Shown piece by piece: positions 27,276 to 54,896 of a DNA stretch of 64,000 nt. Numbering within the stretch: position 1 is the first letter of the stretch; every line of letters begins with the position of its first letter. The stretch covers positions 244,862 through 308,861 of the forward strand of contig OY970382.1 of assembly GCA_963719425.1 (NCBI GenBank). The letters run 5' to 3'. Origin of the DNA: an uncultured bacterium. Lineage in GTDB: Bacteria; Patescibacteriota; Minisyncoccia; UBA6257; 2-01-FULL-56-20. The translations under genes were made by a program, and so were the position numbers. The notes under the pieces are model-generated. The model made no database searches and was not told where the DNA came from. It worked only from the letters and a program-made list of their open reading frames with translations.

Positions 27276-27316
27276 ATACGTTTTTCTTTGGGGTTGTGTT
27301 GCGCTATAATCACGGT

Positions 27317-28684
27317 ATGGATGCCATACAGGGCATTTTGAATGCGGCAGGCGAGGTGTTTTGGTATGCGTGGTGGCTATGGATCCCCCTCATTTTGTTC
27401 CCGCTCTTTGAGTCCACGTGGCTTTTCTGGCGGCAGCAGGTTTTCAAGCGCGAATTGGAGTTCGTGCACATGGAGATCCGCATTCCCCGCGAGGTCAAGA
27501 GGAGCCCGAGGGCGATGGAGCAGGTACTCATGACCATCCACCAACTCCGGAACGAAGCGGCAGACCCGGAAGAAAAATGGTGGGACGGCGAGGTCACGCG
27601 CTGGTACGCGCTGGAGTTAGTAAGCTTCGGCGGAGATATCCACCTGTACGTACGCGCGTGGAGAAAGCAGAAGGAGATTATCCAGGCGGCGTTCTTTGCC
27701 CACTATCCTGACGTGGAGATCGTGGAAACGGATGATTATATTGACCGATTGCCTGCGAGCGTAGGAGAAATGTATAAAAGTGGCTACGACCTTTGGGGGT
27801 CCGAATTCGTCCTCGCGCGCGAACCTGCCTACCCTATCAGGAGCTACATGGATTTTGAATCGCCGGATGAGGAAAAACAGTTTGATCCCATGTCCACCTT
27901 CCTTGAGGTTCTCGGTAAGGTGAAGCGCGAGGAGGTTATATGCATTCAGTATCTCATCGCGCCGGCGAGCATGGATTGGAGAGACAGGTATCAACCCTTG
28001 GTTGAAGATTTGCGCACGAGGCATCAAAAGATTGGCGCGGCCGGAGGAGCGAAACACACCCTCGGGATGGAATTCCCGCACATCCTCCCAACATTCCCGG
28101 TGAAAAAGAGCGGAGAAGGTGAGGATAGTCTGCGCGTCATTGGAAGGGCGATCATGACGCGGACGCCGGGCGAGACAGATGTTTTAAAGGCGGTGGAGGA
28201 GAACATCGCTCTCCCGCCGTTTAATACCCTCATCCGGTTCGTCTATCTCTCGCCGAAGGAACTGTATTTTGACACGCTGCCGCGCCGTGGATTGCGCGGC
28301 GCATTCAACCAATATGCCGCTGCTGACCTTAACTGGTTTGAGCGGAACGAGAAAATCAGCACGAGGGTGAAGATATGGGACTTTCCGTTCTTTTTTCCGC
28401 ATGCACGCCTTGATCGCAGAAAAAACCGCGTGCTTGCGGACTATCGCGCGCGGGAAATCCCGCCGGAGACCTCCGTGGGGAAGCTTATCCGCTCCAAATT
28501 TTTGCATTGGGAGCATTCCCGTCGGGTTCTTTTGAGTGTGCGGTCGCTTGCGACGCTCTTCCATCCGCCAACCTATCAGGTGCTCACGGCACCACACATC
28601 AAACGGGTGGAGAGCAGGAAGGCGGGCGCGCCGGCGGGTCTTGCGATCTACGGCGGGGAAGAGGAAATGGAAAAGTTCAAATAA
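27317..28684 (+). CDS. hypothetical membrane-anchored protein (455 aa), first gene of the ATPase-1 operon
   Basis: N-terminal TM (VFWYAWWLWIPLILFPLF). No recognisable domain. TATAAT at 27305-27310 lies exactly 6 nt before the ATG. The ORF-track 5' extension to 26990 would overlap the divergent GlmU-like gene and was rejected. Confidence 0.6.
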   Translation: MDAIQGILNAAGEVFWYAWWLWIPLILFPLFESTWLFWRQQVFKRELEFVHMEIRIPREVKRSPRAMEQVLMTIHQLRNEAADPEEKWWDGEVTRWYALELVSFGGDIHLYVRAWRKQKEIIQAAFFAHYPDVEIVETDDYIDRLPASVGEMYKSGYDLWGSEFVLAREPAYPIRSYMDFESPDEEKQFDPMSTFLEVLGKVKREEVICIQYLIAPASMDWRDRYQPLVEDLRTRHQKIGAAGGAKHTLGMEFPHILPTFPVKKSGEGEDSLRVIGRAIMTRTPGETDVLKAVEENIALPPFNTLIRFVYLSPKELYFDTLPRRGLRGAFNQYAAADLNWFERNEKISTRVKIWDFPFFFPHARLDRRKNRVLADYRAREIPPETSVGKLIRSKFLHWEHSRRVLLSVRSLATLFHPPTYQVLTAPHIKRVESRKAGAPAGLAIYGGEEEMEKFK

Positions 28685-29259
28685 TGGTAATACTCACAAT
28701 TATCAAGTGGATCTGCATTGTGATTGTGATACTGCTCATTGTGGGCTTCATCTTTGCGTTTTATACGGGCTGGTTTTACCACCCGTTCATGGTGATTATC
28801 ACAATTATCAAGTGGATCTGCATTGTGATTATGATACTGCTCGCCGGGGGCTTCATCTTTGCGTTGTATAAGGGTTGGTCGTACCACCCGCGTTATGAAT
28901 TGGAAACGCGGAAAGCGAAGAAAATATTCACCCTGCGCGACGTGGTGACGAAGGAGCACTGGGAATCCATTGTGAGGAAGTTCTCGCTGGGAACGCCGGA
29001 GGCCGCGCGGGAAGCCGTCATTGAGGCCGATGCGCTCGTGGACACAGTGTTGAAGAGTATGGAAATTCCCGGGCAGCATCTCGCCGACCGGTTGTCCAAT
29101 CTGGAGCCGGAGGAAATTGCGTCGCTCGATCGGGCATGGCGGGCGCACCGCACGCGGAACGATCTCGTGCACACGCCGGGATTTGCGCTGACCGAAAAGG
29201 AGGCGCAAAAGACGCTTGAGGACTACGAGGCTTTTCTCAAAGATTTGGGAGTGCTATAA
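28684..29259 (+). CDS. two-TM membrane protein with duplicated TM segment and helical cytoplasmic C-terminal domain
   Basis: TAATG overlap with the upstream gene. Two near-identical segments (TIIKWICIVI(V/M)ILL..GFIFA.Y.GW.YHP). Confidence 0.55.
   Translation: MVILTIIKWICIVIVILLIVGFIFAFYTGWFYHPFMVIITIIKWICIVIMILLAGGFIFALYKGWSYHPRYELETRKAKKIFTLRDVVTKEHWESIVRKFSLGTPEAAREAVIEADALVDTVLKSMEIPGQHLADRLSNLEPEEIASLDRAWRAHRTRNDLVHTPGFALTEKEAQKTLEDYEAFLKDLGVL
28690..28893 (+). repeat. approximately 102-bp tandem direct duplication (about 90% identical) encoding two TM helices
   Basis: atcacaattatcaagtggatctgcattgtgatt ... appears at about 28693 and again at about 28796. Confidence 0.6.
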
Positions 29260-29266
29260 CGAGGCC

Positions 29267-30745
29267 ATGCCAAGAGCGGGAAAAATACAGATCATCAGAT
29301 ACGCGCCGCCGCCGCCGGAGCTGCCAATCTACGGGCAAGTGGATCCGGCGGAGGTTTCTTTCATCGGCCGCACGAACTATGTAGCGCAGCTTGAGGAGAA
29401 GAAATTTGTCTTTGGCATCAAGCGCCACGACCGGCGCCGGCATCTCTACATCGTGGGAAAAAGCGGCGTGGGGAAATCCAAGTTGCTTGAACTCCTCATC
29501 CGGCAGGATGTTGCGTACGGTCACGGGATGTGCATTATGGACCCGCACGGGGATGTGATAGACGCCGTCCTCGATTTCATTCCGGAGAATCGGATTAACG
29601 ACGTCGTGATCATTGATCCGACCGATATGAGCTATCCATCGTCCTTCAATCCTTTGCAGAACGTGGATCCCAGTTTCAAACACCAACTTGCGCAGGGATT
29701 GATCGAGGTGATGGAGAAGCAGTTCGGCGCGAACTGGACACCGCGCCTGGAGCATGTGTTCCGCTTCAGCGTCCTCGCACTCCTTGATTATCCGCATGCA
29801 ACGATGCGCGGGATGATTTCCATGCTCACGGACAGGAACTATCGACAGAAGGTGGTGGAATACATAGAGGACGACATGGTGAAGCGCTTCTGGGCCATTG
29901 AGTTCGCCGACTGGTCGGAAAAATTTGATACGGACGCGATCATCCCGCTCGTGAATAAGCTCGGCCAGTTCCTTTCCGACCCGCTTCTGCGGAACATCTT
30001 CGGCCAGAAAGAGAACAAGATCAATCTGGAAGAATTGATGGAGCAGAAAAAACTGATCTTCATCAATCTTTCCAAGGGTCGCCTCGGGGAAGAAAATTCA
30101 AGCTTCTTGGGCGCAATGTTCATTACGAAGATCAAGCAGGCCGGCATGGCACGCGCATCCATTCCCGAAAAGGACCGGCACGATTTTTATCTCTATGTGG
30201 ACGAGTTCCACAATCTCGTTACGGAAACCTTTGAGAACATTCTTACCGAAGCGCGGAAGTACGCATTGTGCCTTACGATAGCGCATCAATATATGGGCCA
30301 GCTTATCCAGCGCGTGCAGGCGGCAGTACTCGGGAACGTAGGAAGCATCATCATCTTCCGCATCGGCGGCGAGGATGCGGTCCACTTGAAGCCCGAAATG
30401 GCACCGATCTTTGACGTGAAAGACATGATCAACCTCGGCATGCAGGAATTTTTCATCAAAATGATGATTGACGGTGAAAGCTACGATCCTTTCTCTGCCG
30501 AAACACTCAAAGTGCTTCCGCCGCCGCACCGCTCGTTCCGAAAGGAAATCGTGGAACAGTCCCGGAAGAAGTACACCATCCCCGCCGACGCCGCGAAGAA
30601 ACTTATTCAAGAAGAAGAGGCCACCATCCTCCGGAGCGCTCAGGAAAAAGCCATTATTGAAGGCAAGCCGAGAGGCGGCGCGGGAGGCGGGGCGGGTGCC
30701 GCAAAAGAAGAGGCAGTAGACAAGACCCCCGAGCCTTTGATATAA
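29267..30745 (+). CDS. soluble FtsK/HerA-superfamily P-loop ATPase, VirD4/TraD (type IV coupling protein)-like, copy 1
   Basis: Walker A IVGKSGVGKSKLL, Walker B LYVDEFHNL, C-terminal sensor region LTIAHQYMGQL. No N-terminal TM. Paralogous to the gene at 40469..42430. Confidence 0.75.
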   Translation: MPRAGKIQIIRYAPPPPELPIYGQVDPAEVSFIGRTNYVAQLEEKKFVFGIKRHDRRRHLYIVGKSGVGKSKLLELLIRQDVAYGHGMCIMDPHGDVIDAVLDFIPENRINDVVIIDPTDMSYPSSFNPLQNVDPSFKHQLAQGLIEVMEKQFGANWTPRLEHVFRFSVLALLDYPHATMRGMISMLTDRNYRQKVVEYIEDDMVKRFWAIEFADWSEKFDTDAIIPLVNKLGQFLSDPLLRNIFGQKENKINLEELMEQKKLIFINLSKGRLGEENSSFLGAMFITKIKQAGMARASIPEKDRHDFYLYVDEFHNLVTETFENILTEARKYALCLTIAHQYMGQLIQRVQAAVLGNVGSIIIFRIGGEDAVHLKPEMAPIFDVKDMINLGMQEFFIKMMIDGESYDPFSAETLKVLPPPHRSFRKEIVEQSRKKYTIPADAAKKLIQEEEATILRSAQEKAIIEGKPRGGAGGGAGAAKEEAVDKTPEPLI

Positions 30746-30752
30746 TAATGTC

Positions 30753-30932
30753 ATGTTCGTGCACCCCGTTATTTTTGTCATTGGTGTTCTGTTCATCATT
30801 TACCTCGTTGCGGTCGATGTTCACATGCACCGGCGTGTCAAGCATTTGGAAAAGACCATGAGGAAGATGGAGGGCATGAACAGCGTGGAACATAAAAAGC
30901 CTCGCTGGGAGAATAAGGAGGATCTTTCATAG
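30753..30932 (+). CDS. small single-TM protein (59 aa)
   Basis: MFVHPVIFVIGVLFIIYLVAVDVHMHRRVKHLEK... Preceded by TATAAT (30741-30746) 6 nt before the ATG. Below the ORF-track size cutoff. Confidence 0.3.
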   Translation: MFVHPVIFVIGVLFIIYLVAVDVHMHRRVKHLEKTMRKMEGMNSVEHKKPRWENKEDLS

Positions 30933-31017
30933 CGCGACCAGCACCTCGCATTAAAAAAACATTAAAAACTATTTGACGCGGGATGTGGCGTTGCTATAAT
31001 TAAGGAAATCTTTGGGA

Positions 31018-31461
31018 TTACCCACCGATCCCCGCCTCACGAGAGGCGGGGTGAAGATTTTTTGGGGGATTATAAAACGCAAGAAAGGCCTCAATTATCT
31101 CCCGAAAGTTGCCGGCGCTCAACATGCCGATCTTTTTGATAAGACGTTTCGCGTCCAAAACCCTGACTTGGTTAAGAATCGCCATACGTTTCTTCTCGCC
31201 GTGTGCGACAGGAACATACCAGTTGCCAGTTTTTTGTTGCGTGGTGAGCGGGATGCCAAAAAAGGAATCGGCACTGAATTTTTTGAATATGATGACTGGA
31301 CGCGCGAACCGCTCGCCTTTGCCGTAAATCTCCACGCCGATATTCATCCCGATGCTGCACCACCAGATTTCGCCTTCCTTGAAAAGCGTTTTTGGTTTGG
31401 CGGTTTGCAGTATGACCGCTGTCCGCCACCAGCCAAGCAGCGCGGGAAAATATTTCAGCAT
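31018..31461 (-). CDS. MazF/PemK-family endoribonuclease toxin-like protein
   Basis: GEIWWCSIGMNIGVEIYGKGERFARPVIIF ... GIPLTTQQKTGNWYVPV ... ILNQVRVLDAKRL follows the PemK/MazF core pattern. No cognate antitoxin ORF is evident. Confidence 0.55.
   Translation of the reverse strand: MLKYFPALLGWWRTAVILQTAKPKTLFKEGEIWWCSIGMNIGVEIYGKGERFARPVIIFKKFSADSFFGIPLTTQQKTGNWYVPVAHGEKKRMAILNQVRVLDAKRLIKKIGMLSAGNFREIIEAFLAFYNPPKNLHPASREAGIGG
31031..31063 (+). terminator. intrinsic terminator (CCCCGCCTC-acga-GAGGCGGGG followed by TGAAGATTTTTTGG)
   Basis: GC-rich 9-bp stem plus a U-run downstream of the ATPase-1 operon. Lies inside the 3' end of the convergent MazF-like ORF. Confidence 0.5.
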
Positions 31462-31516
31462 ATCGCCACCCTATCACATCACCCGTTAAAACTTTGTTAA
31501 ATGTCCGACCCACAAC

Positions 31517-31527
31517 GGTGTTATACT
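31517..31527 (+). promoter_or_regulatory. extended -10 element TGtTATACT, 6 nt upstream of the ATG at 31534 (leaderless-type geometry)
   Basis: Read directly. The same -10/N6/ATG geometry occurs at 27305/27317 and 30741/30753. Confidence 0.35.
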
Positions 31528-31533
31528 GTTTCT

Positions 31534-33318
31534 ATGGCGGGCGAGACCAGAATTTGCCAAAACTGCAAGCAATCGTTCACGATTGAAGTCGAAGACTTTG
31601 ATTTCTATAAGCGAGTCGCCGTCCCGCCGCCGACCTTCTGCCCAGAGTGCCGAGCACAAAGAAGGATGCTGTGGCGAAACGAACGCGCCCTATATAAGAG
31701 AGCCTGCAACGCTCCCGGCCATACCGAAATGCTCATTGCGAACATTTCTGCCCAAACCCCAACGCCGGTGTACGATCAAGATTACTGGTGGTCAGATAAC
31801 TGGGATCCTCTTTCCTATGGCAGAGAATACGATTTCAGCAAACCTTTCTTTAATCAGTTGAAAGATCTTTTCCGCGTTTTCCCGCTTCCCAATGTAGTTA
31901 ACCTGGAATCGGTGAACAGCGACTATTGCAATTTCACCTATCAGTGCAAAAATTGCTATCTTGCCTTCGCGAGCAATCTCAACGAAGATAGTGCCTATCT
32001 TTGCCATGCGGAAAGCTGCAAAAGCTCCTTTGATCTTCTCGGCTGCAATTCGGATCAGTTTTGTTACGAATCCATTCATTCTCATAATTCGTACCAATCC
32101 GCATATTTGTTCTACTCCAACGGCTGCATACATTGCCGCTTTCTCTATAACTGTCGGAACTGCCACGATTGCTTTGGCTGTGTGAATTTGAGGAATGCGG
32201 AATATCAGATCTTCAATACGCAATACTCAAGAGACGAGTACGAGAGGAAGGTCAAAGAATTGGATTTGGGCAATTACTACACTAAGGAGGGCGTAGCGGC
32301 GCGATTCGGGAATCACATAAAGGCCTATCCCAAAAAGTACGCGACGGCCGTTCAAACCGTCGGGAGCACAGGGGACTACATTAGCCAACTAAAAAACTCT
32401 CATTTTTGCTTTGACTGCGAAGGTCCTCTTGAGGATTCAAAATATCTCATTTACGGTGTGCCGAATGCTAAGGATTGTTTTGACGGATATGGGATCGGGG
32501 AGGGAGCGGAACTCATTTATGACACGACTGTCGCCGGTGCATCTGCCAGCAGATCGCTCTTCTCCTTTGCGGCGGTCGGTGGTCGTTCCCATCAATATTC
32601 GTACTTTTGCCGCGGGTGCTCGAATATATTCGGCTGCATCGGCATCCGCAATAAGGAATATTGCATTCTCAATAGACAGTATAGTAAAGACCAGTATCTC
32701 GCATTGCTTCCGAAAATAATTGACCACATGAACGCGATACCTTACGTTGACGCGAAGGGCCGAACCTACGCGTACGGCGAGTTTTTCCCTTACGAGATAG
32801 GCCATTTTGCTTACAACGAAACAATCGCGCAGGAATATTTTCCACTGACGAAAGAGCAAGCTATATCTCAGGGCTACCGATGGTTGGATGTTGAAGAAAA
32901 GAGCCACGGAAAGACCAAGGATCCCGCCCATCTCCCCGCCCACACAAGAGACGTATCCGATGACATTCTCAAAGAAACGATCGGCTGTGCCCATGAGGGG
33001 AAGTGTGCCGAACAGTGCACTGTCGCCTTCAAGATAATCCCACAAGAACTTCAGTTTTACAAAGCGATGAATTTGCCATTGCCGCGCCTTTGCCATAATT
33101 GCCGCCACTACGAAAGATTGAAGCAACGCAACCCCTTCAAGCTTTGGGAAAGAGAGTGCAGCTGCAATGGCAGGGCGTCAAAAGATGGTATATATACCAA
33201 TGCCACTAACCATTTTCACAATGAGAATCGTTGTCCCAACACTTTTCAGACCTCCTATGCCCCGGACCGGCCGGAGATCGTCTACTGCGAACAGTGTTAC
33301 AACACGGAGGTAGCATAG
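31534..33318 (+). CDS. Cys-rich multi-zinc-ribbon protein, array member 1
   Basis: N-terminal ribbon CQNCKQSFTIEVEDFDFYKRVAVPPPTFCPECRAQRRM. Trp-rich YDQDYWWSDNWDP..YGREYDF. Two Cys-ladder repeats ending CFGC.NLRN..Y.IFN.QYS..EY. Conserved YGEFFP..FAYNET.AQ.YFPLTK. A second ribbon C..C..AFKIIPQELQFYKAMNLPLPRLCHNCR. C-terminal knuckle RPEIVYCEQCYN. Start chosen at MAGETRICQNC by analogy with its paralogs; an alternative ATG lies at 31501. Confidence 0.75.
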   Translation: MAGETRICQNCKQSFTIEVEDFDFYKRVAVPPPTFCPECRAQRRMLWRNERALYKRACNAPGHTEMLIANISAQTPTPVYDQDYWWSDNWDPLSYGREYDFSKPFFNQLKDLFRVFPLPNVVNLESVNSDYCNFTYQCKNCYLAFASNLNEDSAYLCHAESCKSSFDLLGCNSDQFCYESIHSHNSYQSAYLFYSNGCIHCRFLYNCRNCHDCFGCVNLRNAEYQIFNTQYSRDEYERKVKELDLGNYYTKEGVAARFGNHIKAYPKKYATAVQTVGSTGDYISQLKNSHFCFDCEGPLEDSKYLIYGVPNAKDCFDGYGIGEGAELIYDTTVAGASASRSLFSFAAVGGRSHQYSYFCRGCSNIFGCIGIRNKEYCILNRQYSKDQYLALLPKIIDHMNAIPYVDAKGRTYAYGEFFPYEIGHFAYNETIAQEYFPLTKEQAISQGYRWLDVEEKSHGKTKDPAHLPAHTRDVSDDILKETIGCAHEGKCAEQCTVAFKIIPQELQFYKAMNLPLPRLCHNCRHYERLKQRNPFKLWERECSCNGRASKDGIYTNATNHFHNENRCPNTFQTSYAPDRPEIVYCEQCYNTEVA

Positions 33319-33341
33319 TAGCTCTGGAGTAAAATAAAGAC

Positions 33342-35126: not shown

Positions 35127-36835
35127 CGACCGGAATCGAAACGCGCACGTGCCAGAATTGCAAGCAGGCGTTTGTCATTGATCCGGAGGACTTTCAGTTC
35201 TACGGGAAAGTTAGCGTCCCTCCGCCGACCTTTTGCCCGGACTGCCGTTTTCAACGGCGGCTTTTATTTTGGAATCCAATCTATCTTTACAAGCGGCCCT
35301 GCGATTTGTGTAAGAAGTTTAATGTGTCGGCGTATGCACCTGACGCGCCCTATACCGTGTATTGTCCTTTGTGTTGGTGGAGCGACAGCTGGGACCCATT
35401 GGAATACGGACGGGAGTACGATTTCAAACGCCCATTCTTTGAACAACTGAACGAGCTATGGCACACGGTGCCGTTGTGCGGCTTGTCTATGGATTTGCCG
35501 ACCGCGCGCTCCTCGCCCTATAATCACGACGCCGGCTATCTAAAAAATTGTTATCTCCTTTTTCATGCCGATACTTGCGAGGATTGTGCGTACGGTTACT
35601 TCTTGGACAAATCTCGAATGCTTTTTGATTGCACCGCCATGGAGCAGAGCGAGTACGGTTATGACTCCATGCACTCGTACAAAACAAACCGGTGTATCGG
35701 AACGCGGGACCAGCTCTCGGAATCGGTAGAGTGCCTCTTCTGCCGCGACTGCCAGGGCTGCCAGAGCTGTTTCGCCTCCGCGAACCTGAAGGGTCAGAAA
35801 TATTATGCGTGGAACAAGCCGCTTTCCAAACAAGAATATCTTACGGAAATCGGTAAGTATGATTTGGGATCCTACCGCGCCTATCAAGCGTTGCAGAAAA
35901 AAGCCGCGGAGCACTGGAAGACGCAGATACCCAAATCGGAATACAACGAGTTCGTGGAGAACTGCACCGGCTCAAATGTTTTCTTCTCCAGGAACGCCAA
36001 GGATTGCATTGAGGTGTACAACGTGGAGGATGGTCGGTATTGTTACCGCATGTTCGCGCCTACCAACAAGGATTGCTATGACGTTTCCATGTGGGGGAAG
36101 AATCTCTCGTTGACGTACGATAGCTGTGTGGTAGGAGAAGATTCCACACGGCTCCGGTTTTCCTATCAGTCCGGCATCAACCTTAGCGATGCTGAATATT
36201 GTCAACTGTCCACGGGTGGTTCCCACCATTTTGGCTGCGTTTCAATCAAGAAAGGGGAATATCGGATTTTCAACAGGGCATATTCCGCAAAGGAGTATGA
36301 GGCGCTAACGGGAAAAATCCGGAAGCATATGAATGAAATGCTGTATGCGGATGCGCGAGGTAACGTCTATCGCTATGGCGAGTTTTTCCCACCGGAGATG
36401 TCACCCTTCGCCTATAATGAAACGCTGGCGCAGAATTTCTTTCCGCTCACGAAGGAAAAAATCGCCGCAAAGAAATACGTGTGGCGAAATATTGAAGTGA
36501 AAGAAATGGAGGCAACCATGTCGTCAGCCGATTTGCCCGATCATATAAAAGATGTCCCTGACGACATTCTCCAGGAAACCATAAAGTGCGAAACGTGCAG
36601 CCGCTCGTATCGGATCGCTGAGATGGAACTGGCCTTCCTTCGGCAGATGAAGCTGTCCTTGCCGCGCCGCTGCCCTTTCTGCCGGGTAAACGAGAAATTG
36701 AACATTTGGGTGAAGGACAATGAACGCAACCGGCGCACGTGTGCCGATTGCGGCGTCGCGATGGAGTCAAAGTATCGGGAAGACGAAGCGCCGGAGGTAT
36801 ATTGCCGGAAGTGTTATTTGCAAAGGATAATGTAG
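35123..36835 (+). CDS. Cys-rich multi-zinc-ribbon protein, array member 3
   Basis: ATGA overlap with member 2. N-terminal ribbon plus a second ribbon PCDLCKK...PYTVYCPLCWWSD. C-terminus diverged (EVYCRKCYLQRIM). Confidence 0.75.
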   Translation: MTTGIETRTCQNCKQAFVIDPEDFQFYGKVSVPPPTFCPDCRFQRRLLFWNPIYLYKRPCDLCKKFNVSAYAPDAPYTVYCPLCWWSDSWDPLEYGREYDFKRPFFEQLNELWHTVPLCGLSMDLPTARSSPYNHDAGYLKNCYLLFHADTCEDCAYGYFLDKSRMLFDCTAMEQSEYGYDSMHSYKTNRCIGTRDQLSESVECLFCRDCQGCQSCFASANLKGQKYYAWNKPLSKQEYLTEIGKYDLGSYRAYQALQKKAAEHWKTQIPKSEYNEFVENCTGSNVFFSRNAKDCIEVYNVEDGRYCYRMFAPTNKDCYDVSMWGKNLSLTYDSCVVGEDSTRLRFSYQSGINLSDAEYCQLSTGGSHHFGCVSIKKGEYRIFNRAYSAKEYEALTGKIRKHMNEMLYADARGNVYRYGEFFPPEMSPFAYNETLAQNFFPLTKEKIAAKKYVWRNIEVKEMEATMSSADLPDHIKDVPDDILQETIKCETCSRSYRIAEMELAFLRQMKLSLPRRCPFCRVNEKLNIWVKDNERNRRTCADCGVAMESKYREDEAPEVYCRKCYLQRIM

Positions 36836-36881
36836 CCCACTTGGCAGCTTGTGAAAAGGAGTAAAATGGAGGGGTAAGGCC

Positions 36882-38624
36882 ATGGCTGCAGAGGCTAAAA
36901 CTGAAGCTGAGACCAAGGTCTGCGAGGCTTGCAAGGGAGAGTTCGCGGTTGAACCGGAGGACCTTGCGTTCTACGGGAAGTTCGGTGTGCAGGTGCCGAA
37001 GATGTGCCCGCGGTGCCGCGCGCGGCGGCGGATGGCGTTCCGGAACGAGCGCGTGTTCTACAAGCGTAAGTGCGACAAGTGCGGGCGCGAGGTGGTTTCC
37101 ATGTACAGTCCGGGGAAGCCGTATATGGTGTATTGCTATGAGTGCTGGTTCGCGGACGATTGGGATGCGTTGAGCTACGGGATGGAATACGATCCCGCGC
37201 GGCCGTTCATGGAACAGTTCCGCGAACTTTGGGAAAAGGTGCCGAAAGTCGCGCTGGTTTACATGCGGAGCGTGAACTCGGAATACGTGAACATCTCGGC
37301 GGACAACAAGGACTGCTACATGCTGGTGGAATCGTCCAACAACGAGGGGTGCATCAATTGTTATTGGGTTCAGCAGTGCCGTGATCTTGTGGATGTCTCG
37401 TTCTCGCATCAGACGGAGCTTTCCTATGAGTGCGACGATTGCTTCAATTGCTACGGACTGCAGTATGCGAAAGGTTGCCACGATTGCCGCAATGGTTATT
37501 TCTTGTTTGACTGCGTGGGATGCTCGGATTGCATCGGTTGCACGAACCTCCGCAGCAAGCAGTATCATATTTGGAACGAGCCGCACTCTAAAGAGGAATA
37601 TGAAGAGCTTCTCGCGGAGATGAAGCTTGATACGCACGCCGGGGTGGAGGCGGCGCACAGAAAGTTTGAGGAATTCTTGAAAACCCAGCCGCACAAGTTC
37701 GCGGAGATTATCAATGCGCCCGGTTCAACCGGCAATTACATCAAGAACGCCAAGAATTGCCGGCAGATTTTCCACTGCTACGACGCGGAGGATGCGAAAT
37801 ACGGCATCCACGTGTGGCGCGACGCAAAGGACTGCATGGATGTGGATACGGCGGGCCGTGGCGCCCGATTGATCTACAACTCCATCAATTCGGGCATTGA
37901 GGTTTCAAATTATGTCGCCTGTGCGCAGTGCTGGACGTGTTCGTTCATGGAATATTCCTATTATTGCTTCAACTGCAACCATTGCTTCGGCTGTGCCGGA
38001 CTTCGGAAGAAAGATCGCTGCATTCTGAACCACGAGTACGATAAGGCGTCGTATGAACGTTTGCGCGACGCCATCGTGTCCGAGATGAAAGCAAAAAGGG
38101 AGTACGGCGAGTTTTTCCCGATTGCGATTAGCGCGTTCGGTTACAACGAGAGTGCCGCACAGGAGCAGTTTCCACTCACGAAGGCGGAGGCGATTGCGCG
38201 CGGGTGCAAGTGGGAGGATACTCCGCGCGGCACGTATGGGAAGGGAACAATCGGATGGGACAAGGTTCCCGATACCTATGATGGGTTCAATCCGACCAAG
38301 CACGTTTTCACCTGCACGAATTGCAAAAGGAATTATCTTGTCATTCCCAACGAGGCCACGTTCTACAAGAAGCTCGCGATTCCCGTGCCGCGCCTATGCC
38401 CCGATTGCCGCCACGAACGCCGCTTTGCCGCCCGCGGCCCGAACCGTGTTTCGCGGCAGCACTGCGATTGCGCGGGCACGACGTCGGAGAACGGACGATA
38501 TCGCAACACGCGGGCCCATGCCCACGCAAACGCCCCATGCCCCAACGAGTTTTGGACAAGCTATGCTGCAAACGACGAGCGGATCGTCTACTGCGAGCAG
38601 TGCTACAATGCAGAGGTGGTGTAG
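36882..38624 (+). CDS. Cys-rich multi-zinc-ribbon protein, array member 4 (GC-richer)
   Basis: VCEACKGEFAVEPEDLAFYGKFGVQVPKMCPRCRARRRM, CDKCGREVVSMYSPGKPYMVYCYECW ... RIVYCEQCYNAEVV. Noticeably higher GC than its siblings. Confidence 0.75.
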   Translation: MAAEAKTEAETKVCEACKGEFAVEPEDLAFYGKFGVQVPKMCPRCRARRRMAFRNERVFYKRKCDKCGREVVSMYSPGKPYMVYCYECWFADDWDALSYGMEYDPARPFMEQFRELWEKVPKVALVYMRSVNSEYVNISADNKDCYMLVESSNNEGCINCYWVQQCRDLVDVSFSHQTELSYECDDCFNCYGLQYAKGCHDCRNGYFLFDCVGCSDCIGCTNLRSKQYHIWNEPHSKEEYEELLAEMKLDTHAGVEAAHRKFEEFLKTQPHKFAEIINAPGSTGNYIKNAKNCRQIFHCYDAEDAKYGIHVWRDAKDCMDVDTAGRGARLIYNSINSGIEVSNYVACAQCWTCSFMEYSYYCFNCNHCFGCAGLRKKDRCILNHEYDKASYERLRDAIVSEMKAKREYGEFFPIAISAFGYNESAAQEQFPLTKAEAIARGCKWEDTPRGTYGKGTIGWDKVPDTYDGFNPTKHVFTCTNCKRNYLVIPNEATFYKKLAIPVPRLCPDCRHERRFAARGPNRVSRQHCDCAGTTSENGRYRNTRAHAHANAPCPNEFWTSYAANDERIVYCEQCYNAEVV

Positions 38625-38631
38625 TTAAGAC

Positions 38632-40425
38632 ATGGGGCCTGAAACGAAAACCTGTCAAAATTGCAAGCAGCCGTTCGTCATTGATCTGGAGGATTTTCGG
38701 TTTTACGAGAAAATTAATGTCCCGCCGCCCACGTGGTGCCCAGATTGCCGGCTGCAACGGCGGCTTTCGTTTCTGAACCACCGCACGCTTTATAAGCGGA
38801 ATTGCAGCTCTTGCGGGAAAAGCATGGTGTCGCTGTATGACACCGGCGCGCCTTTTCCCGTGTATTGCCCGGACTGCTGGTGGTCGGACAAATGGGATTC
38901 AAAAAGCTACGGGCGGCCGTATGATTTTTTGCTGCCGTTCTTTGAGCAATTCAAGCGGCTAAGCATGGGAGTTCCGCGCATGTCACTTGAGGGGCTCCAT
39001 GAGACGTGGATCAATAGCGAATACAACAACCTTGCCCACGAACTCAAAAATTGCTATCTGCTTTTCAATTCGGACGTGGACGAGAATTGCCTGTATGGTT
39101 CGGAGGTGGAGAGCTCAAATAATTGCGTGGATACGACCATGATAGAGTCATCGGAACTTTGCTATGGAAGCATCAATCTCGTGAACTGCCACCGCGTGTT
39201 TTTCTCCGCCGATTGTGTGGACTGCCACAATGTGTGGTTCGGAAGAGACCTCGCGAATTGCAACGACTGCTTCGGCTGCACGAATTTGCGCAACCGAAAG
39301 TATCATATTTTCAACAAATCATATTCCAAGGAAGATTATGCAAAGGAGATAGCGACATTCGGTTTAAGTTCGCGGGCCGGCATCGCAGAATGCATGAAGC
39401 GGACGCAGGCGCTTTCTCTAAGTTTCCCCCGCAAGTTCATGCACGGGAGGCACAACGTGAATGTGTCGGGCGACTATGTGAATTACTCAAAAAATACCCA
39501 CGATGCCTACATTGCCCTCGGCGCCGAGGACTGCCGCTATGCGATGTGGCTCATTATAAAGCCGAACAGGGACTGCTACGATTTTACCCAATTCGGCGGC
39601 AATGCCGAGCGCGTGTACGAGTCACTCGTGTGCGGGAAGGGCGTGAGCGATACCAAATTCAGCATAAATTGCGTTGATGAGATTTCTTCTGTGACATACT
39701 CCGACCATTCCTTTTGTTCAAATGCCTTCGGCTGCGTGTCACTGAAGAAAGGGAACAAGTACTGCATTTTGAACAAGCAGTATGCCGAGGATGAATATCG
39801 AGCGCTCGTGCCGAAGATCGTCGCCCATATGAACGAGATGCCGTATGTTGACCGACAAGGAAGAGAATATCGCTACGGGGAATTTTTCCCGCCGGAGTTG
39901 TCTCTCTTCGCCTACAACGAAACGGAGGCGCAGGGATATTTCCCGCTTACGAAAGCAGAGGCGCTGCGGCAGGGCTTCTTGTGGAAAGAGCCGGATACGA
40001 AAAGCTATAAAATTACGTTAAGCGGTGCGCAGATTCCTGACTCGCTTCGGGATACGCCGGATGCCATCGTGGACGTGGACGAGGTGCTTGAATGCGCCCA
40101 CAAAGGACAATGTAACGAGCAGTGCGCCACGGCATTCCGCATCATCCCCGACGAACTTACGTTCTACAAGAAATTTTCGCTGCCGATTCCCAATCTGTGC
40201 TCCAATTGCCGCTCCGCAGCGCGGCTTGCGCTACGAAACGGACACAAACTTTGGCACAGGAAATGCGAGTGCGCCAGACAAAAGTCCGATAACGGCGCGT
40301 ATCAAAATGCGGCGGCACATTTCCACGCCCAAGGCCACTGTCCCAACGAATTTGAAACTTCCTACGCTCCCGACCGACCCGAGATCGTCTACTGCGAGCA
40401 GTGCTATAACGCGGAGGTGGTATAG
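38632..40425 (+). CDS. Cys-rich multi-zinc-ribbon protein, array member 5
   Basis: CQNCKQPFVIDLEDFRFYEKINVPPPTWCPDCRLQRRL, CSSCGKSMVSLYDTGAPFPVYCPDCWW ... RPEIVYCEQCYNAEVV. Confidence 0.75.
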   Translation: MGPETKTCQNCKQPFVIDLEDFRFYEKINVPPPTWCPDCRLQRRLSFLNHRTLYKRNCSSCGKSMVSLYDTGAPFPVYCPDCWWSDKWDSKSYGRPYDFLLPFFEQFKRLSMGVPRMSLEGLHETWINSEYNNLAHELKNCYLLFNSDVDENCLYGSEVESSNNCVDTTMIESSELCYGSINLVNCHRVFFSADCVDCHNVWFGRDLANCNDCFGCTNLRNRKYHIFNKSYSKEDYAKEIATFGLSSRAGIAECMKRTQALSLSFPRKFMHGRHNVNVSGDYVNYSKNTHDAYIALGAEDCRYAMWLIIKPNRDCYDFTQFGGNAERVYESLVCGKGVSDTKFSINCVDEISSVTYSDHSFCSNAFGCVSLKKGNKYCILNKQYAEDEYRALVPKIVAHMNEMPYVDRQGREYRYGEFFPPELSLFAYNETEAQGYFPLTKAEALRQGFLWKEPDTKSYKITLSGAQIPDSLRDTPDAIVDVDEVLECAHKGQCNEQCATAFRIIPDELTFYKKFSLPIPNLCSNCRSAARLALRNGHKLWHRKCECARQKSDNGAYQNAAAHFHAQGHCPNEFETSYAPDRPEIVYCEQCYNAEVV

Positions 40426-40448
40426 CGCTGGCAAAATCGCCGAAACCG

Positions 40449-40457
40449 TGGTATAAT
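40449..40457 (+). promoter_or_regulatory. extended -10 promoter TGgTATAAT, 11 nt upstream of the ATPase-2 ATG
   Basis: gtggtataatgggagcagaat ATG, read directly. Confidence 0.4.
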
Positions 40458-40468
40458 GGGAGCAGAAT

Positions 40469-42430
40469 ATGGAGGAAGCCCCTGACAAAAACGTAATTTA
40501 TTTCGCACGAACCGATTTTCGCAATCAAGATCGGCTTTTTGGTATCAAGCGGACCGACCGGCGCCAGCACATGTACGTCATAGGAAAAACGGGCACTGGT
40601 AAAAGCGCGCTCCTCAACAATATGGCTGTGCAGGACATCGCGAACGGCGAGGGGCTTTGCGTCGTTGATCCGCACGGCGAGCTTGTGGAGGGACTCATGA
40701 GAAGGATCCCGGAGGAGCGAATGAAAGACGTTATCTATTTCAATCCGGCCGATACGGATTTTCACATCGGCTTCAACGTGCTGGAGCTGCCTGACCCGAG
40801 GTACAAGCACCTTGTGGCGTCGGGACTCATGGGAATTTTCACGAAGATCTGGGCAGGTGTCTGGTCGCCGCGCATGGAATACATTTTGAATAATTGCGTG
40901 CTCGCGCTCTTGGATACTCCAGGTTCCACGCTCCTTGGTATCCCTCGGCTTCTGACCGACAAAGATTACCGGCAGAAGATCATCGCGAACATAAAGGACC
41001 CCGTCGTGAAGGCCTTCTGGATCCATGAATTTGAAGGATGGCAGGACCGGTTCAGGAACGAAGCCATCGCGCCGATACAAAACAAGGTAGGCCAATTTCT
41101 TTCCACCTCTCTCGTCCGCAACATCGTCGGTCAGTCAAAGAGCACCGTGGACATTTTTGACGTGATGAACGAGGGGAAGATTTTCCTCGTGAACGTTTCC
41201 AAGGGCCGCATCGGAGAGGATAACTCCGCGCTTTTGGGTGCCATGCTCATCACGAAGATTCAGCTTGCTGCCATGGAACGCGTCCGCATTCCCGAAGAGG
41301 AACGCGTGGACTTTTACCTTTATGTGGACGAGTTTCAGAACTTCGCTACGGATTCCTTCGCGGGAATTCTTTCCGAAGCGCGAAAGTACCGTTTGGACCT
41401 TATCCTTGCGCACCAGTATGTCGGGCAGCTCGTTACTGATACTTCCACGAGGGTGCGCGACGCGATCTTCGGCAACGTGGGGACGATGATCATATTCCGC
41501 GTGGGTGCCACCGATGCAGAATTTCTGGAGAACGAGTTTACACCAGAGTTCACGATAGAAGACATCGTGAACCTCCCGAACTACTCCATCTATCTGAAGC
41601 TCATGGTGAGCGGGGTGACCTGCCGCCCGTTTTCTGCGATCACGCTCCCACCGCTTCAGGTGAAAACCTCCGCGGTGGTGGAATCCGAGATCATCAAAAT
41701 GGCGCAGAAGCGCTATTCCCGGCCGCGCGAGGTTGTGGAAGAGGAAATTAACCGTTGGAGCGGGGTAATGGGACCGCCTGCGTCTGCGGAAGGAGAAAAG
41801 AAAGAGGGAGGCGCAACAAGATACGAAGCGATATGCTCTTCGTGTGGCAAGATGACGACGTTGCCGTTTGAACCGACCCCCGGCCGGCCGGTGTATTGCC
41901 GCGAGTGTCTGAAAAAAATTGAGGCCGGCGAACTTCAGCCGGTGCGGATGCCGCGCGTGCCGGTCGCACGCGCAAGGCCGCAAAAGAAATACGCGGAAGA
42001 TTTGAGTTATCTCGGCATTGAATTCCCGGAACAGGGAGCGCCAAGCGAATCGCAGCCAGCGGTGAGAAGGGCGCCCGCGCCAGTGCGTCCCATGGGCGAA
42101 GGGGCGGGGACATGGACGCCGGTTTCCGGACCAAAAGCAGCTACCGTGCCAGCCGCCGCACCGGCTGCCGCGCCATCCGAGCCGGTTGGGCCGACACTTT
42201 CGCTGTCCGAATTGAAGTCGGCCGACCGGAAACCGAAGTTGAAGAAAACACAACAGCGCGAGGAGATTAATATTTCCGAGCTTCGGGAGGCGATCAAGGC
42301 GTCTTTGAACGCAGATGCCGGTGCGAGCTCCACGCAAACCGCCGGGACAGAGAAGGATGGTACTGCCCCCGCTCCCGTCCACGCTGGCGAGGAGGAGGAA
42401 AACGGCGAAGAGGAGCACTTGACGCGCTAA
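40469..42430 (+). CDS. VirD4/TraD-like P-loop ATPase copy 2, with C-terminal zinc ribbon and a long Ala/Pro/Glu-rich tail
   Basis: Walker A VIGKTGTGKSALL, Walker B LYVDEFQNF, sensor LILAHQYVGQL. C-terminal CSSCGKMTTLPFEPTPGRPVYCRECL (C-x2-C-x17-C-x2-C), then an approximately 180-aa low-complexity tail. Confidence 0.75.
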   Translation: MEEAPDKNVIYFARTDFRNQDRLFGIKRTDRRQHMYVIGKTGTGKSALLNNMAVQDIANGEGLCVVDPHGELVEGLMRRIPEERMKDVIYFNPADTDFHIGFNVLELPDPRYKHLVASGLMGIFTKIWAGVWSPRMEYILNNCVLALLDTPGSTLLGIPRLLTDKDYRQKIIANIKDPVVKAFWIHEFEGWQDRFRNEAIAPIQNKVGQFLSTSLVRNIVGQSKSTVDIFDVMNEGKIFLVNVSKGRIGEDNSALLGAMLITKIQLAAMERVRIPEEERVDFYLYVDEFQNFATDSFAGILSEARKYRLDLILAHQYVGQLVTDTSTRVRDAIFGNVGTMIIFRVGATDAEFLENEFTPEFTIEDIVNLPNYSIYLKLMVSGVTCRPFSAITLPPLQVKTSAVVESEIIKMAQKRYSRPREVVEEEINRWSGVMGPPASAEGEKKEGGATRYEAICSSCGKMTTLPFEPTPGRPVYCRECLKKIEAGELQPVRMPRVPVARARPQKKYAEDLSYLGIEFPEQGAPSESQPAVRRAPAPVRPMGEGAGTWTPVSGPKAATVPAAAPAAAPSEPVGPTLSLSELKSADRKPKLKKTQQREEINISELREAIKASLNADAGASSTQTAGTEKDGTAPAPVHAGEEEENGEEEHLTR

Positions 42431-49753: not shown

Positions 49754-49756
49754 AGA

Positions 49757-50554: not shown

Positions 50555-50566
50555 GGAGTCGCGCGG

Positions 50567-51292: not shown

Positions 51293-51333
51293 AAAGTTAG
51301 CACCAGGTGTAGTTTGCTTGCAGGGGGTGCGCT

Positions 51334-51504
51334 ATGACAAGAGAAGAACGGAAAAAAGAGCAGCAAGTTGAGGCAAGGTTGCGGGAGCAACGCAGGGTAA
51401 TGGAAGCATATTCTCAAGCAGTGGCCAATGAGGATTTCGCGAAAGCCAAAGAACTTGTTACGAAAGGTCTTGGGATGGGAATTTCACTGGGGCGTCTCCG
51501 ATGA
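51334..51504 (+). CDS. possible small ORF (56 aa, Lys/Glu-rich helical) in the carB-pyrE gap
   Basis: ATG at 51334 is preceded by GGGGGTG 5 nt upstream. Below the ORF-track cutoff and on the opposite strand to the pyr genes. Confidence 0.2.
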   Translation: MTREERKKEQQVEARLREQRRVMEAYSQAVANEDFAKAKELVTKGLGMGISLGRLR

Positions 51505-54891: not shown

Positions 54892-54896
54892 AGGCG

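Follow-up and report, generated by a model that had tools for sequence, protein, structure and literature searches.

Type IV coupling proteins (T4CPs) of the VirD4/TrwB/TraD type, among them TrwB of R388 (PDB 1E9R), combine a P-loop domain carrying Walker A and B motifs with an all-alpha domain and have an N-terminal transmembrane (TM) domain in the same chain, and T4CPs that dock adaptors possess a C-terminal extension. The N-terminal domain of VirB4 is wrapped by VirB3 and mediates VirB4 dimerisation (PMC9259494), and in TrsC-TrsD-TrsE of pGO1 a separate VirB4-N-terminal-like protein (TrsD) is found beside a small TM protein and an ATPase (PMC12102498). The locus described here lies in a 64-kb stretch of DNA (hereafter, the window) from a small-genome bacterium of the Paceibacteria/Minisyncoccia (Patescibacteria), and its core (27317–30745) probably encodes a VirD4/TrwB-family T4CP whose parts are carried by separate genes. 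The ATPase shares the P-loop and all-alpha domains of the T4CPs named above, whereas its chain has no N-terminal TM domain, the anchor being a separate protein, and the genes are chromosomal, highly conserved, and have no relaxase or channel genes nearby. The division of the T4CP into two genes would account for the seemingly missing TM anchor of the ATPase. This reading is based on homologies, a fold match, the conservation of a gene triad, and the occurrence of the modules fused or side by side in other phyla. All of the ORFs listed in an earlier note on this DNA were found where it had placed them; unless indicated otherwise, the features given below are on the + strand.

The first gene of the core (27317–28684) encodes a 455-aa protein in which a single aromatic-rich membrane helix at the N-terminus is followed by a cytoplasmic alpha/beta domain. 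Its only hydrophobic segment, residues 13–31, gave a borderline Kyte-Doolittle value of 1.42 and a Wimley-White octanol value of −17.5 kcal/mol, and was modelled as a long helix by AF2. The N-terminal anchor proposed earlier for this protein is present, but the protein is not an unknown one: its orthologues carry PF26449 (DUF8128), and it corresponds to the N-terminal DUF8128 module of T4CPs. Structure comparison of the AF2 model (pLDDT 79) revealed a VirB4-like fold, and the list of structural matches, read without residue alignments, suggests that the likeness is to the N-terminal domain of VirB4, the partner of VirB3 (TrwK/TrwM of R388). The similarity to VirB4 is structural only, as hhalign found nothing between DUF8128 and TrwK or TrsD; the locus also differs from the VirB4 systems in that its motor is nearer to TrwB, and from the pGO1 arrangement in its order of N-terminal module, small TM protein, and ATPase. 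A much weaker similarity was seen to EccE of mycobacterial type VII secretion (ESX-3, ESX-5), a different secretion system. A TATAAT box (27305–27310), located 6 nt before the first ATG (27317), may belong to a promoter of the leaderless type; the −10 element reported previously at 27305 is therefore there, but its −35 is poor and no sigma-70 promoter was called by the consensus scan.

The DUF8128 gene is followed by a gene for a small membrane protein (191 aa; 28684–29259), and the two overlap in a TAATG sequence (TAA, 28682–28684; ATG, 28684–28686). As had been noted, two TM segments are present, and they are joined to a helical cytoplasmic domain that is conserved and contains the motif AHRxRNxLVH. 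The second TM helix derives from a 105-nt tandem duplication (28694–28890; 1.9 copies, 89% matches by Tandem Repeats Finder), and most orthologues, judged by eye from the family alignment, have one TM helix. No sequence match was found in the PDB, and weak matches to HEPN_Swt1, HepT-like_2, and Hypoth_Ymh in 3 of 20 family members (best E-value, 0.0013) hint that the cytoplasmic domain could be HEPN-like.

The third gene of the core (29267–30745) encodes ATPase-1 (492 aa), a soluble TrwB/VirD4-type protein with a nucleotide-binding and an all-alpha domain, its Walker A and B motifs being at residues 64 and 308, respectively. A paralogous T4CP-type protein, ATPase-2 (653 aa; 40469–42430), is 43% identical to it and has a C-terminal CxxC-x17-CxxC zinc ribbon (aa 451–483; nt 41819–41917); by eye, the remainder of its C-terminus is a long low-complexity tail with an acidic end, an extension comparable to that of adaptor-docking T4CPs. 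The Walker A motifs of the two proteins are GKSGVGKS and GKTGTGKS, and Walker B is YLYVDE. ATPase-1 exceeds the cut-offs of the Pfam models TrwB_AAD_bind, T4SS-DNA_transf, and DUF87; ATPase-2 matches zf_Tbcl_2 (55.8 bits), a type of domain for which zinc binding was shown experimentally (PMC12704099), TrwB_AAD_bind (46.8 bits), and TIGR04272. The hhalign comparison of ATPase-1 with TrwB yielded a probability of 95.9% (E-value, 5.7e-9; 265 columns), while the probabilities for the ATPase elsewhere were 52% for TrwK, 87% for TrsE (113 columns), and 43% for TrsK, and TrwB ranked first in the PDB profile search. Neither ATPase has an FtsK_SpoIIIE Pfam match or a TM segment, and their scores for the NCBIfam T4CP equivalogs are far under the cut-offs. 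At the level of sequence, the ATPases are closest to TrwB, not to FtsK or VirB4, in agreement with their earlier description as VirD4-like ATPases devoid of an N-terminal TM anchor. The promoter and terminator previously assigned to ATPase-2 fared differently, as a promoter-like site with an extended −10 (40428–40457; 10/12 matches with TG) was recovered by the scan, but the terminator is weak.

Eight plasmid loci (767 ORFs), picked solely for the similarity of their ATPases or to serve as T4SS references, were scanned with an HMM built from 252 DUF8128 proteins, which gave three matches in all at E < 0.01. One is the gene directly 5′ of the homologous ATPase on a Bacillus subtilis plasmid (E-value, 6.9e-15), and the other two are the N-terminal ~400 aa of fused proteins of Streptomyces (4.9e-7) and Embleya (2.3e-6). 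According to precomputed Pfam matches, PF26449 + PF10412 + PF01935 + PF12696/PF02534 architectures occur in about 100 actinobacterial proteins, which are named T4CP or T4SS DNA-binding protein. In these Actinomycetota fusions, e.g., that of Embleya sp. (WP_331738717.1; 812 aa), the homologous ATPase follows a DUF8128 part at the N-terminus, in the same linear order as here; the homology of the Embleya T4CP extends to both ATPase-1 (E-value, 1.5e-57) and ATPase-2 (1.6e-64). The fusions are single polypeptides, that of Embleya lying in a conjugation-type cluster with TrbL_4, PrgI, a Replic_Relax protein, and a VirB4-like ATPase, whereas the locus studied is split, has a small membrane-protein gene between the halves, and is without T4SS or relaxase neighbours. 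The Bacillus plasmid module comprises a 171-aa protein, a 696-aa DUF87 ATPase (ATPase E-values, 2.2e-31 to 1.2e-36), and a Replic_Relax protein encoded 3′ of the pair. It resembles the locus in having a DUF8128-type gene directly 5′ of the homologous ATPase, but its separate gene covers the N-terminal half of DUF8128 only, and the module is plasmid-borne with a relaxase-like gene next to it; a C-terminal DUF8128 motif on the Bacillus ATPase is a weak, non-significant match (domain i-E-value, 0.036). Taken as the N-terminal module of a subfamily of T4CPs, here detached, DUF8128 would, together with ATPase-1, quite likely make up one split T4CP. The earlier proposal of an uncharacterised kind of device is not supported, as the ATPases have clear homologues that are annotated T4CPs (E-values, 1e-57 to 1e-64). 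Placement among T4CPs of complete T4SSs, which had been named as evidence against that proposal, was found in part, with one homologue located inside a T4SS cluster (PrgI/VirB3, VirB4-like, TrbL-like, and Replic_Relax).

The genes for the DUF8128 protein, the small membrane protein, and the ATPase are contiguous in 66 of 70 related loci, which ties the ATPase to its two upstream membrane proteins, in line with the co-localisation noted earlier; the small membrane protein adjoins DUF8128 in 68 of the 70. The upstream neighbours of the triad vary by lineage, and in Ryanbacteria loci the triad is flanked by housekeeping genes. Across species, the median identity is 80% for ATPase-1 (65 loci) and 50% for DUF8128. 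The former value is far above what we expected for conjugation proteins and hints at a different, housekeeping-type role.

Downstream of ATPase-1, an ORF for a 59-aa peptide with one TM segment (30753–30932) was present, as suspected before; it is found at eight loci (about six independent genomes; 32–77% identity), directly 3′ of the ATPase. The terminator placed after it is represented by a GC-rich hairpin with a U-run (31030–31063; −27.9 kcal/mol, z −2.8), the hairpin (31030–31051) having a 9-bp GC stem and the U-run lying 6 nt further 3′, but this site was not called by the scan. A strong promoter-like site (30973–31000; 11/12 matches with TG) lies 5′ of the hairpin. The convergent gene on the − strand (31018–31461), antisense to the direction of the locus, is indeed PemK/MazF-like (Pfam, 39.1 bits; cut-off, 23.1), and no plausible antitoxin ORF was noticed near it. 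Since the MazF gene occurs in only three loci from the two closest relative genomes, it is an unrelated, recent, lineage-specific insertion outside the unit.

Between the MazF gene and ATPase-2 lies the array of five Cys-rich genes reported in the earlier note, whose products are zinc-ribbon/beta-helix proteins that are 33–47% identical to one another and contain 34–42 Cys each. Paralogue 1 (31501–33318; likely true start, ATG 31534) has Zn-ribbons and two beta-helix-like repeat regions, paralogue 2 (594 aa; 33342–35126) was chosen for a structure model, and paralogue 3 (35123–36835) shares as much as 85% identity with its orthologues in related loci; paralogues 4 (36882–38624) and 5 (38632–40425) were recognised by their ORFs, Cys content, and orthologues in related loci. 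Of 50 loci, 36 have Cys-rich genes downstream of the triad, always on the same strand, compared with 1 of 48 that have them upstream, so the linkage claimed earlier is frequent. The array may nevertheless be functionally unrelated to the ATPases and owe its position simply to a gene order inherited within small, syntenic genomes, a real possibility that falls somewhat short of an even chance. In line with it, the Cys-rich gene is missing downstream in 14 of the 50 loci, ATPase-1 and the first Cys-rich gene are more than 1.5 kb apart in 8 of 45, and neither DUF8128 nor a T4CP-type ATPase lies within 10 kb of the orthologues from three other lineages. Against it stand the strong downstream asymmetry, gaps of ≤100 bp in nine loci, adjacency that is kept where upstream neighbours vary, and 7 of 24 ATPase-2-like genes directly 3′ of a Cys-rich gene, as well as the zf_Tbcl_2 domain of ATPase-2, to whose model paralogue 3 has a sub-threshold C-terminal match and some Cys-rich orthologues have weak or faint precomputed ones. 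The link between the Cys-rich genes and the ATPase is real, but it is not obligate because these genes lie elsewhere in the three other lineages.

Other functions for the triad were also weighed. A T4CP-derived motor could have been exapted for an essential housekeeping process independent of any T4SS, for example the handling of the nucleoid or chromosome during division, the uptake of DNA, or the export of particular proteins or their insertion into the membrane, with DUF8128 and the small membrane protein forming its own membrane platform. The identity of ATPase-1 relative to that of DUF8128 fits this well, as do a chromosomal triad kept in 66 of 70 sampled loci, beside housekeeping genes in Ryanbacteria, the lack of T4SS genes nearby, and the literature, which places these T4CPs far from virB4 as possibly exapted. 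We nonetheless regard such a translocase as unlikely, as the ATPases lack an FtsK_SpoIIIE match and all homologues with an interpretable context adjoin relaxase-like or T4SS genes. To our knowledge, no T4CP has a housekeeping function of this kind. Evidence against an essential role also comes from Ca. Southlakia epibionticum, whose T4CP homologue is non-essential for epibiotic growth while other T4SS genes are essential (PMC12102498); this difference from the other T4SS genes counts against the split-T4CP reading as well.

The conflict or defence system offered earlier as an alternative, in which a HerA/T4CP-like ATPase would act together with the MazF toxin and with the small membrane protein as a HEPN RNase effector, and the paralogues would serve as sensors or decoys, received no support and is very improbable. 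The HEPN-type matches and R-N-x3-H motif of the small membrane protein, the MazF gene within the locus, and plasmid-borne ATPase relatives might speak for it, but PADLOC gave no specific defence-family match to any component, only generic, weak, and partial matches to HerA and mad8 of MADS, with which the ATPases share the P-loop core of the FtsK-HerA superfamily, and partner effector genes are missing. Defence islands are patchy and fast-evolving, the opposite of a triad that is found in nearly all sampled related genomes with varied flanks and an ATPase ~80% identical across species; the restriction of MazF to three loci and a GC content without marked shift across the locus argue in the same direction. 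Least probable of all is that an integrated conjugative or mobilisable element has decayed here, leaving a T4CP module without its relaxase and channel among unrelated neighbours. Although the Bacillus and Actinomycetota plasmid modules pair the ATPase with Replic_Relax, and relaxase and channel genes were not found here, all of the genes are intact and apparently under strong purifying selection, the arrangement is identical in 66 of 70 loci of different species, a second intact ATPase paralogue is present, and neither an integrase (ORF listings of the window, no dedicated search) nor a marked GC shift was noticed.

In the split T4CP favoured here, ATPase-1 would form a hexameric soluble motor, tethered to the membrane by DUF8128 and the small membrane protein in a manner resembling the hold of VirB3 on the N-terminal domain of VirB4, and ATP hydrolysis would drive a DNA or protein substrate into a membrane channel. 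A low-sensitivity search detected no T4SS channel gene or relaxase in the window, and among the T4SS components of R388 and pGO1, only the coupling proteins matched any of its ORFs; the reported lack of VirB4, VirB6, relaxase, and pilin genes is borne out to this extent, but the 455-aa protein does have a VirB4-like fold. Patescibacteria usually encode a monoderm-type T4SS near the replication origin (PMC12102498), and we infer that such a system, encoded elsewhere in the genome, would be the likeliest channel to which the split T4CP is coupled. ATPase-2 would be a second, paralogous motor with its zinc ribbon and long tail where canonical T4CPs dock substrates or adaptors, and the five Cys-rich proteins encoded between both motors are, speculatively, the best adaptor or cargo candidates. 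Thus, rather than a wholly new machine, the locus represents a concrete entry point to the many orphan coupling ATPases of Patescibacteria.

The earlier note's gene-level claims were all borne out, and the ORFs were found as given. On the plus strand, the gene for a 455-aa protein (27317–28684; hereafter the DUF8128 protein) is followed by those for a 191-aa small membrane protein (28684–29259) and a 492-aa ATPase (ATPase-1; 29267–30745), these three making up the triad. Further downstream on the same strand lie a 59-aa ORF (30753–30932), five genes for Cys-rich paralogues of 570–605 aa (between 31501 and 40425) and the gene for a 653-aa ATPase (ATPase-2; 40469–42430); a PemK/MazF gene (31018–31461) is the only minus-strand gene listed for the region. 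The TAATG overlap between the first two triad genes is real, and TM segments were found in the 191-aa and 59-aa proteins. The promoter proposed for the 455-aa gene was sustained in part: a TATAAT box is present at 27305–27310, 6 nt 5' of the ATG, but its −35 region is poor and the site was not called by the scan. Behind the 59-aa ORF, the proposed terminator corresponds to a 9-bp GC hairpin with its U-run 6 nt downstream. The promoter of the ATPase-2 gene corresponds to a promoter-like site bearing an extended −10. TATAAT boxes lie 6–11 nt 5' of the ATG in the DUF8128 gene (27305–27317), the 59-aa ORF (30741–30753) and the ATPase-2 gene (40452–40469), which suggests that these three may be expressed from leaderless or near-leaderless mRNAs. 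Rfam and tRNA scans of the window returned no matches.

ATPase-1 and ATPase-2 are paralogues with 43% identity (E-value, 1e-136), both having Walker A and B motifs (GKSGVGKS and YLYVDE in ATPase-1, GKTGTGKS and YLYVDE in ATPase-2). Both exceed the Pfam gathering cut-offs for TrwB_AAD_bind (40.7 and 46.8 bits, respectively, vs. 20.5; profile positions 13–309/311), T4SS-DNA_transf (30.8 and 24.9 bits vs. 20.1) and DUF87, and ATPase-2 additionally does so for TraG-D_C; the latter protein also carries a zinc ribbon and ends in a long tail. When a ten-sequence profile was used as the hhalign query, TrwB, the type IV coupling protein (T4CP) of R388, was matched with a probability of 95.9% (E-value, 5.7e-9) over 265 columns covering TrwB residues 118–393, that is, the nucleotide-binding and all-alpha domains, compared with 52% over 91 columns for the R388 VirB4 protein TrwK, and 87% over 113 columns and 43% for TrsE and TrsK of pGO1, respectively. 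TrwB also ranked best in a PDB profile search, from which FtsK was absent, and neither ATPase matched PF01580 (FtsK_SpoIIIE) at E <= 0.01; FtsK/SpoIIIE membership was rejected on these two results. Among the NCBIfam T4CP equivalogs, the best score was 61 bits vs. a cut-off of 250 (conju_CD1115), and the remaining scores in the CD1115/SXT TraD/TOL TraD/F TraD set were below 50 bits vs. cut-offs of 366–647. The all-alpha domain inserted in the nucleotide-binding domain appears to be present in both ATPases. Since TrwB is the best match, FtsK is absent and the equivalog scores are far under their cut-offs, the two ATPases are assigned, by sequence, to a broadly defined VirD4/TrwB family of coupling proteins, outside all of the curated subfamilies.

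The P-loop and the all-alpha domain are common to T4CPs and the window ATPases, but the N-terminal TM anchor on the same chain is not, as neither ATPase contains any TM segment. Moreover, T4CPs are encoded or act together with a type IV secretion system (T4SS) channel and a relaxase, whereas no genes for these were detected in the 64-kb window. In a phmmer comparison of low sensitivity with R388 VirB1–VirB11 (except for VirB7, which is missing from the plasmid) and 11 Trs proteins of pGO1, no window ORF matched any component besides the T4CPs, in agreement with the absence of canonical T4SS parts claimed earlier.

The 455-aa protein is 91% identical to a relative encoded in GCA_049997875.1 (Minisyncoccia/Paceibacteria), and the closest relatives of the window proteins are found in metagenome-assembled genomes of Minisyncoccia/Paceibacteria (Patescibacteria, former 'Parcubacteria'). 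Local Pfam and NCBIfam scans with a model set lacking PF26449 (DUF8128) returned no matches; in precomputed annotation, PF26449 is assigned to the 91%-identical orthologue and to all of the 120 homologues listed. Among 1.84 billion representative proteins, a profile search detected 2,371 matching clusters. The N-terminal segment of the 455-aa protein is rich in aromatic residues; its Kyte-Doolittle value (1.42) is borderline, and its Wimley-White octanol value (−17.5 kcal/mol) strongly favours the membrane.

The AlphaFold2 model of the protein (pLDDT 79, pTM 0.77) was submitted to two independent fold searches, which gave R388 TrwK as the single outstanding match, the best 13 Foldseek matches all being TrwK chains (E-values, 9e-6 to 2e-3). 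Full-length TrwK chains include the VirB4 N-terminal domain (residues 15–400), of which they are the first structures, and this domain is wrapped by VirB3 and mediates VirB4 dimerisation (PMC9259494). Because the separately solved C-terminal ATPase domain of VirB4 (4AG5) was not matched by the fold search, and a Walker motif is absent from DUF8128 by sequence inspection, we infer that the modelled fold corresponds to the VirB4 N-terminal domain. In hhalign, the probability of a DUF8128–TrwK match was 0.1%, with no detectable profile similarity to TrwK or to TrsD, the VirB4-N-terminal-like protein of pGO1, and TIGR00929 (VirB4) scored 14.5 bits vs. a cut-off of 643. DUF8128 would thus share with VirB4 the fold of the N-terminal domain, but not membership by sequence with an ATPase on one chain.

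A tblastn search of 72,556 plasmids with ATPase-1 yielded 383 records, mainly from Bacillus, Streptomyces, Staphylococcus, haloarchaea and Sulfolobus. An Embleya plasmid among them encodes a protein of 812 aa annotated as a T4CP (WP_331738717.1), whose C-terminal half was the region matched and whose neighbours are TrbL_4 (just below cut-off), PrgI, Replic_Relax and a VirB4-like ATPase (P-loop_TraG, AAA_10, TraC_F_IV); one homologue of the window ATPases therefore does sit within a T4SS-type cluster. DUF8128 gave no match to plasmids by tblastn, and nothing significant when compared with the lone Embleya sequence by hhalign, so the link required, in addition to the fold search, an HMM of 252 family members, which was run against 767 ORFs from eight plasmid loci. 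This HMM matched a 171-aa gene directly 5' of the gene for a homologous 696-aa ATPase on a B. subtilis plasmid (E-value, 6.9e-15) and the N-terminal ~400 residues of fused proteins from Streptomyces (4.9e-7) and Embleya (2.3e-6, in two colinear pieces), together with a marginal match to a haloarchaeal 1193-aa protein (0.076). The Embleya N-terminal region, when compared with a large protein database, returned ~100 actinobacterial proteins with precomputed PF26449 plus PF10412, PF01935, PF12696 or PF02534, their source names being 'type IV secretion system DNA-binding domain-containing protein' or 'DUF8128 domain-containing protein'. Given the HMM matches and these precomputed architectures, DUF8128 is best described, at the level of homology, as the N-terminal module of a T4CP subfamily, fused to the ATPase in Actinomycetota, partly split from it on Bacillus plasmids and fully split in the window. 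The ATPase would lack the classical T4CP anchor because this part resides in the separately encoded DUF8128 protein.

The C-terminus of the DUF8128 protein, SRKAGAPAGLAIYG (28600–28684), resembles the N-terminus of ATPase-1, IRYAPPPPELPIYG (29267–29340), and both align by eye with the segment ARSVVPPARIPTPG (residues 380–392) of the Embleya fused T4CP. This is, as judged by eye, what one would expect if the junction had been duplicated when the DUF8128–ATPase gene split; alternatively, the two termini may carry a shared docking motif. Small Bacillus plasmids (24–28 kb, typed as non-mobilisable) encode a 171-aa protein corresponding to the N-terminal half of DUF8128, a 696-aa T4CP-like ATPase and Replic_Relax (5117–8651 in B. 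subtilis plasmid CP025942), and this three-gene set may represent an unrecognised mobilisation module.

As for the third member of the triad, remote-homology searches yielded only weak HEPN matches for the small membrane protein: HEPN_Swt1 was matched by 3 out of 20 members (best E-value, 0.0013), and HepT-like_2 and Hypoth_Ymh by one member each. Residues W93, A115, D116, L123, G130, H155 and N159 of the cytoplasmic domain are invariant, and a consensus motif AHRxRNxLVH is present, with RNxLVH as majority consensus and conservation of 90% or more at R158 and N159. A PDB profile search returned no HEPN protein and only chance-level matches, e.g., Rpb5, and the term 'HEPN-like' is offered as a lead only. 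No relative was found when the HMM of the small membrane protein was run against the plasmid loci. A 105-nt tandem duplication (28694–28890; 1.9 copies, 89% matches) has doubled the TM helix; the doubled helix is also present in a 91%-identical relative (191 aa) and absent from an 89%-identical one (156 aa), and therefore the helix copy number was altered recently, apparently leaving the cytoplasmic domain unmoved.

Conservation was assessed by blastp against simple ORF calls in 80 loci, with one genome taken per species. The order DUF8128 protein/small membrane protein/ATPase is intact in 66 of the 70 loci with enough downstream sequence, and linkage of the triad is thereby confirmed; in a few loci, an ATPase-2-type gene takes the position immediately 3' of the small membrane protein gene (5 out of 24 ATPase-2-like genes). 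Median identity to the window protein is 80% for ATPase-1, 68% for ATPase-2, 50% for the DUF8128 protein and 41% for the small membrane protein. The upstream neighbours vary by lineage: a nucleotidyltransferase (read by eye) in the window, a PG_binding_1 protein in the 91%-identical relative, and sigma-70 and SecDF in Ryanbacteria. Cys-rich genes are located downstream of the triad on the same strand in 36 out of 50 loci, and upstream in 1 out of 48. Of 45 loci, 9 have a gap of at most 100 bp between ATPase-1 and the first Cys-rich gene, 23 have one of at most 400 bp and 8 have one exceeding 1.5 kb, and 7 of the 24 ATPase-2-like genes lie directly 3' of a Cys-rich gene.

The five-gene Cys-rich array is genuine, its paralogues being 33–47% identical with 34–42 Cys residues apiece; one of the Cys-rich proteins has a 100%-identical counterpart encoded on an 888-kb contig. 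The family has more than 7,000 matches and no Pfam domain, with only weak matches to zf_Tbcl and zf_Tbcl_2; identity among the matches listed is 55–70%, and all of those bearing a source name are from Patescibacteria. In the alignment, a CxxC...CPxCR zinc ribbon stands at the N-terminus and recurs in nearly the same form close to the C-terminus, with a '...VYCEQCY' ribbon at the very end, and a PDB sequence search returned no matches. The family is wider than the triad and its linkage lineage-specific, since no gene for DUF8128 or a T4CP-type ATPase lies within 10 kb of three orthologues sampled from other lineages. Other lineages of Patescibacteria carry the Cys-rich genes in isolation or as small tandem groups next to inconsistent neighbours (ABC transporter, SMC-like ATPase and GH130 genes), and therefore the gene context gives no functional clue there. 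Comparison with the other paralogues points to the second ATG, 31534 (MAGETRICQNCK), and not to 31501, as the probable start of Cys-rich paralogue 1.

The PemK toxin domain of the MazF gene product was identified with 39.1 bits vs. a cut-off of 23.1, and no plausible antitoxin ORF was found on either side of the gene. As MazF was confined to three loci, all of them in the two closest relative genomes, it was rejected as a component of the unit. The gene lies antisense within the plus-strand gene flow, and a stable hairpin and U-run (31030–31063) lie 3' of a strong promoter-like site (30973–31000, +; 11/12 matches, TG). Together, these elements would give either a short RNA complementary to the 3' end of mazF or, on read-through, a transcript antisense to all of mazF that extends into the Cys-rich genes.

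Elsewhere in the window, a 3,941-aa ORF (6056–17881, −) contains about eight near-identical tandem repeats ('...ANPTIIVTPYAVPFDGAAHTATGTAKG...' units), and a signal-like sequence at the N-terminus and a region resembling a polysaccharide deacetylase are recognisable by eye; its product is presumably a giant surface protein. At 46504–56003 (−), a run of ORFs resembles, by eye only, pyrimidine biosynthesis genes (aspartate carbamoyltransferase, dihydroorotase, dihydroorotate dehydrogenase, OMP decarboxylase and carbamoyl-phosphate synthase), which, if true, would be notable in a Patescibacterium.

The observed homologies, fold match and gene linkage best support a reading of the locus as a chromosomal, strongly conserved split T4CP together with a small membrane partner specific to the lineage and a second, paralogous motor, the one with the zinc ribbon and long C-terminal tail. 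The interpretation given in the earlier note thus holds for the VirD4-type ATPases and the linked membrane proteins, but the locus is not a new kind of machine. The motor would form a hexamer, with DUF8128 docking it at the membrane, and substrate would be delivered to a T4SS encoded elsewhere; a role of the Cys-rich proteins as adaptors or cargo is speculative. A bolder reading, which seems rather unlikely, is that the Cys-rich proteins are dedicated adaptors or cargo of the split coupling ATPase, recognised by the ATPase-2 zinc ribbon, in which case the operon would be a Patescibacteria-specific, T4CP-driven export or nucleoprotein-delivery pathway of the epibiotic lifestyle; as a separate part of this reading, DUF8128-bearing T4CPs would be a lineage with a retained VirB4-type N-terminal domain, bridging VirB4 and VirD4 in evolution.

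Because ATPase-1 is very highly conserved and relaxase and channel genes are absent from the window, a T4SS-independent housekeeping role is the main rival to the split T4CP acting with a distant T4SS. According to the literature, Patescibacteria genomes have about two 'orphan' VirD4-like ATPases apiece, far from T4SS genes; TrsD, the VirB4-N-terminal-like protein, is the commonest T4SS component; and a Southlakia T4CP homologue is not essential, exaptation having been raised as possible (PMC12102498). The conflict or defence system suggested earlier is poorly supported and was rejected, as in PADLOC the ATPases gave only partial mad8 and HerA matches, the DUF8128 and Cys-rich proteins were unmatched and the small membrane protein had one weak unrelated match (Cas11e; E-value, 0.0032), and the conservation pattern also speaks against it. 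A decayed mobile element is likewise poorly supported, for the genes are all intact, the layout is identical in dozens of species and there is no marked GC shift.

Literature searches on DUF8128, zf_Tbcl and Cys-rich Patescibacteria families yielded no description of the operon and no mention of DUF8128. At least in Paceibacteria, one of the orphan VirD4-like ATPases makes up a split coupling protein together with DUF8128, the half that has the VirB4-like fold; the two are accompanied by a fixed small membrane partner and often followed by members of a huge unannotated zinc-protein family, which is flagged as a possible partner. A vague annotation is thereby turned into a defined, testable four-part unit, which provides a framework for the orphan T4CPs of Patescibacteria, so far unexplained. 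A Pfam DUF likewise gains a function-linked context, with ties to the biology of VirB4 and T4CPs, and the locus hints at how ATPases of the VirB4 and VirD4 types may be related.
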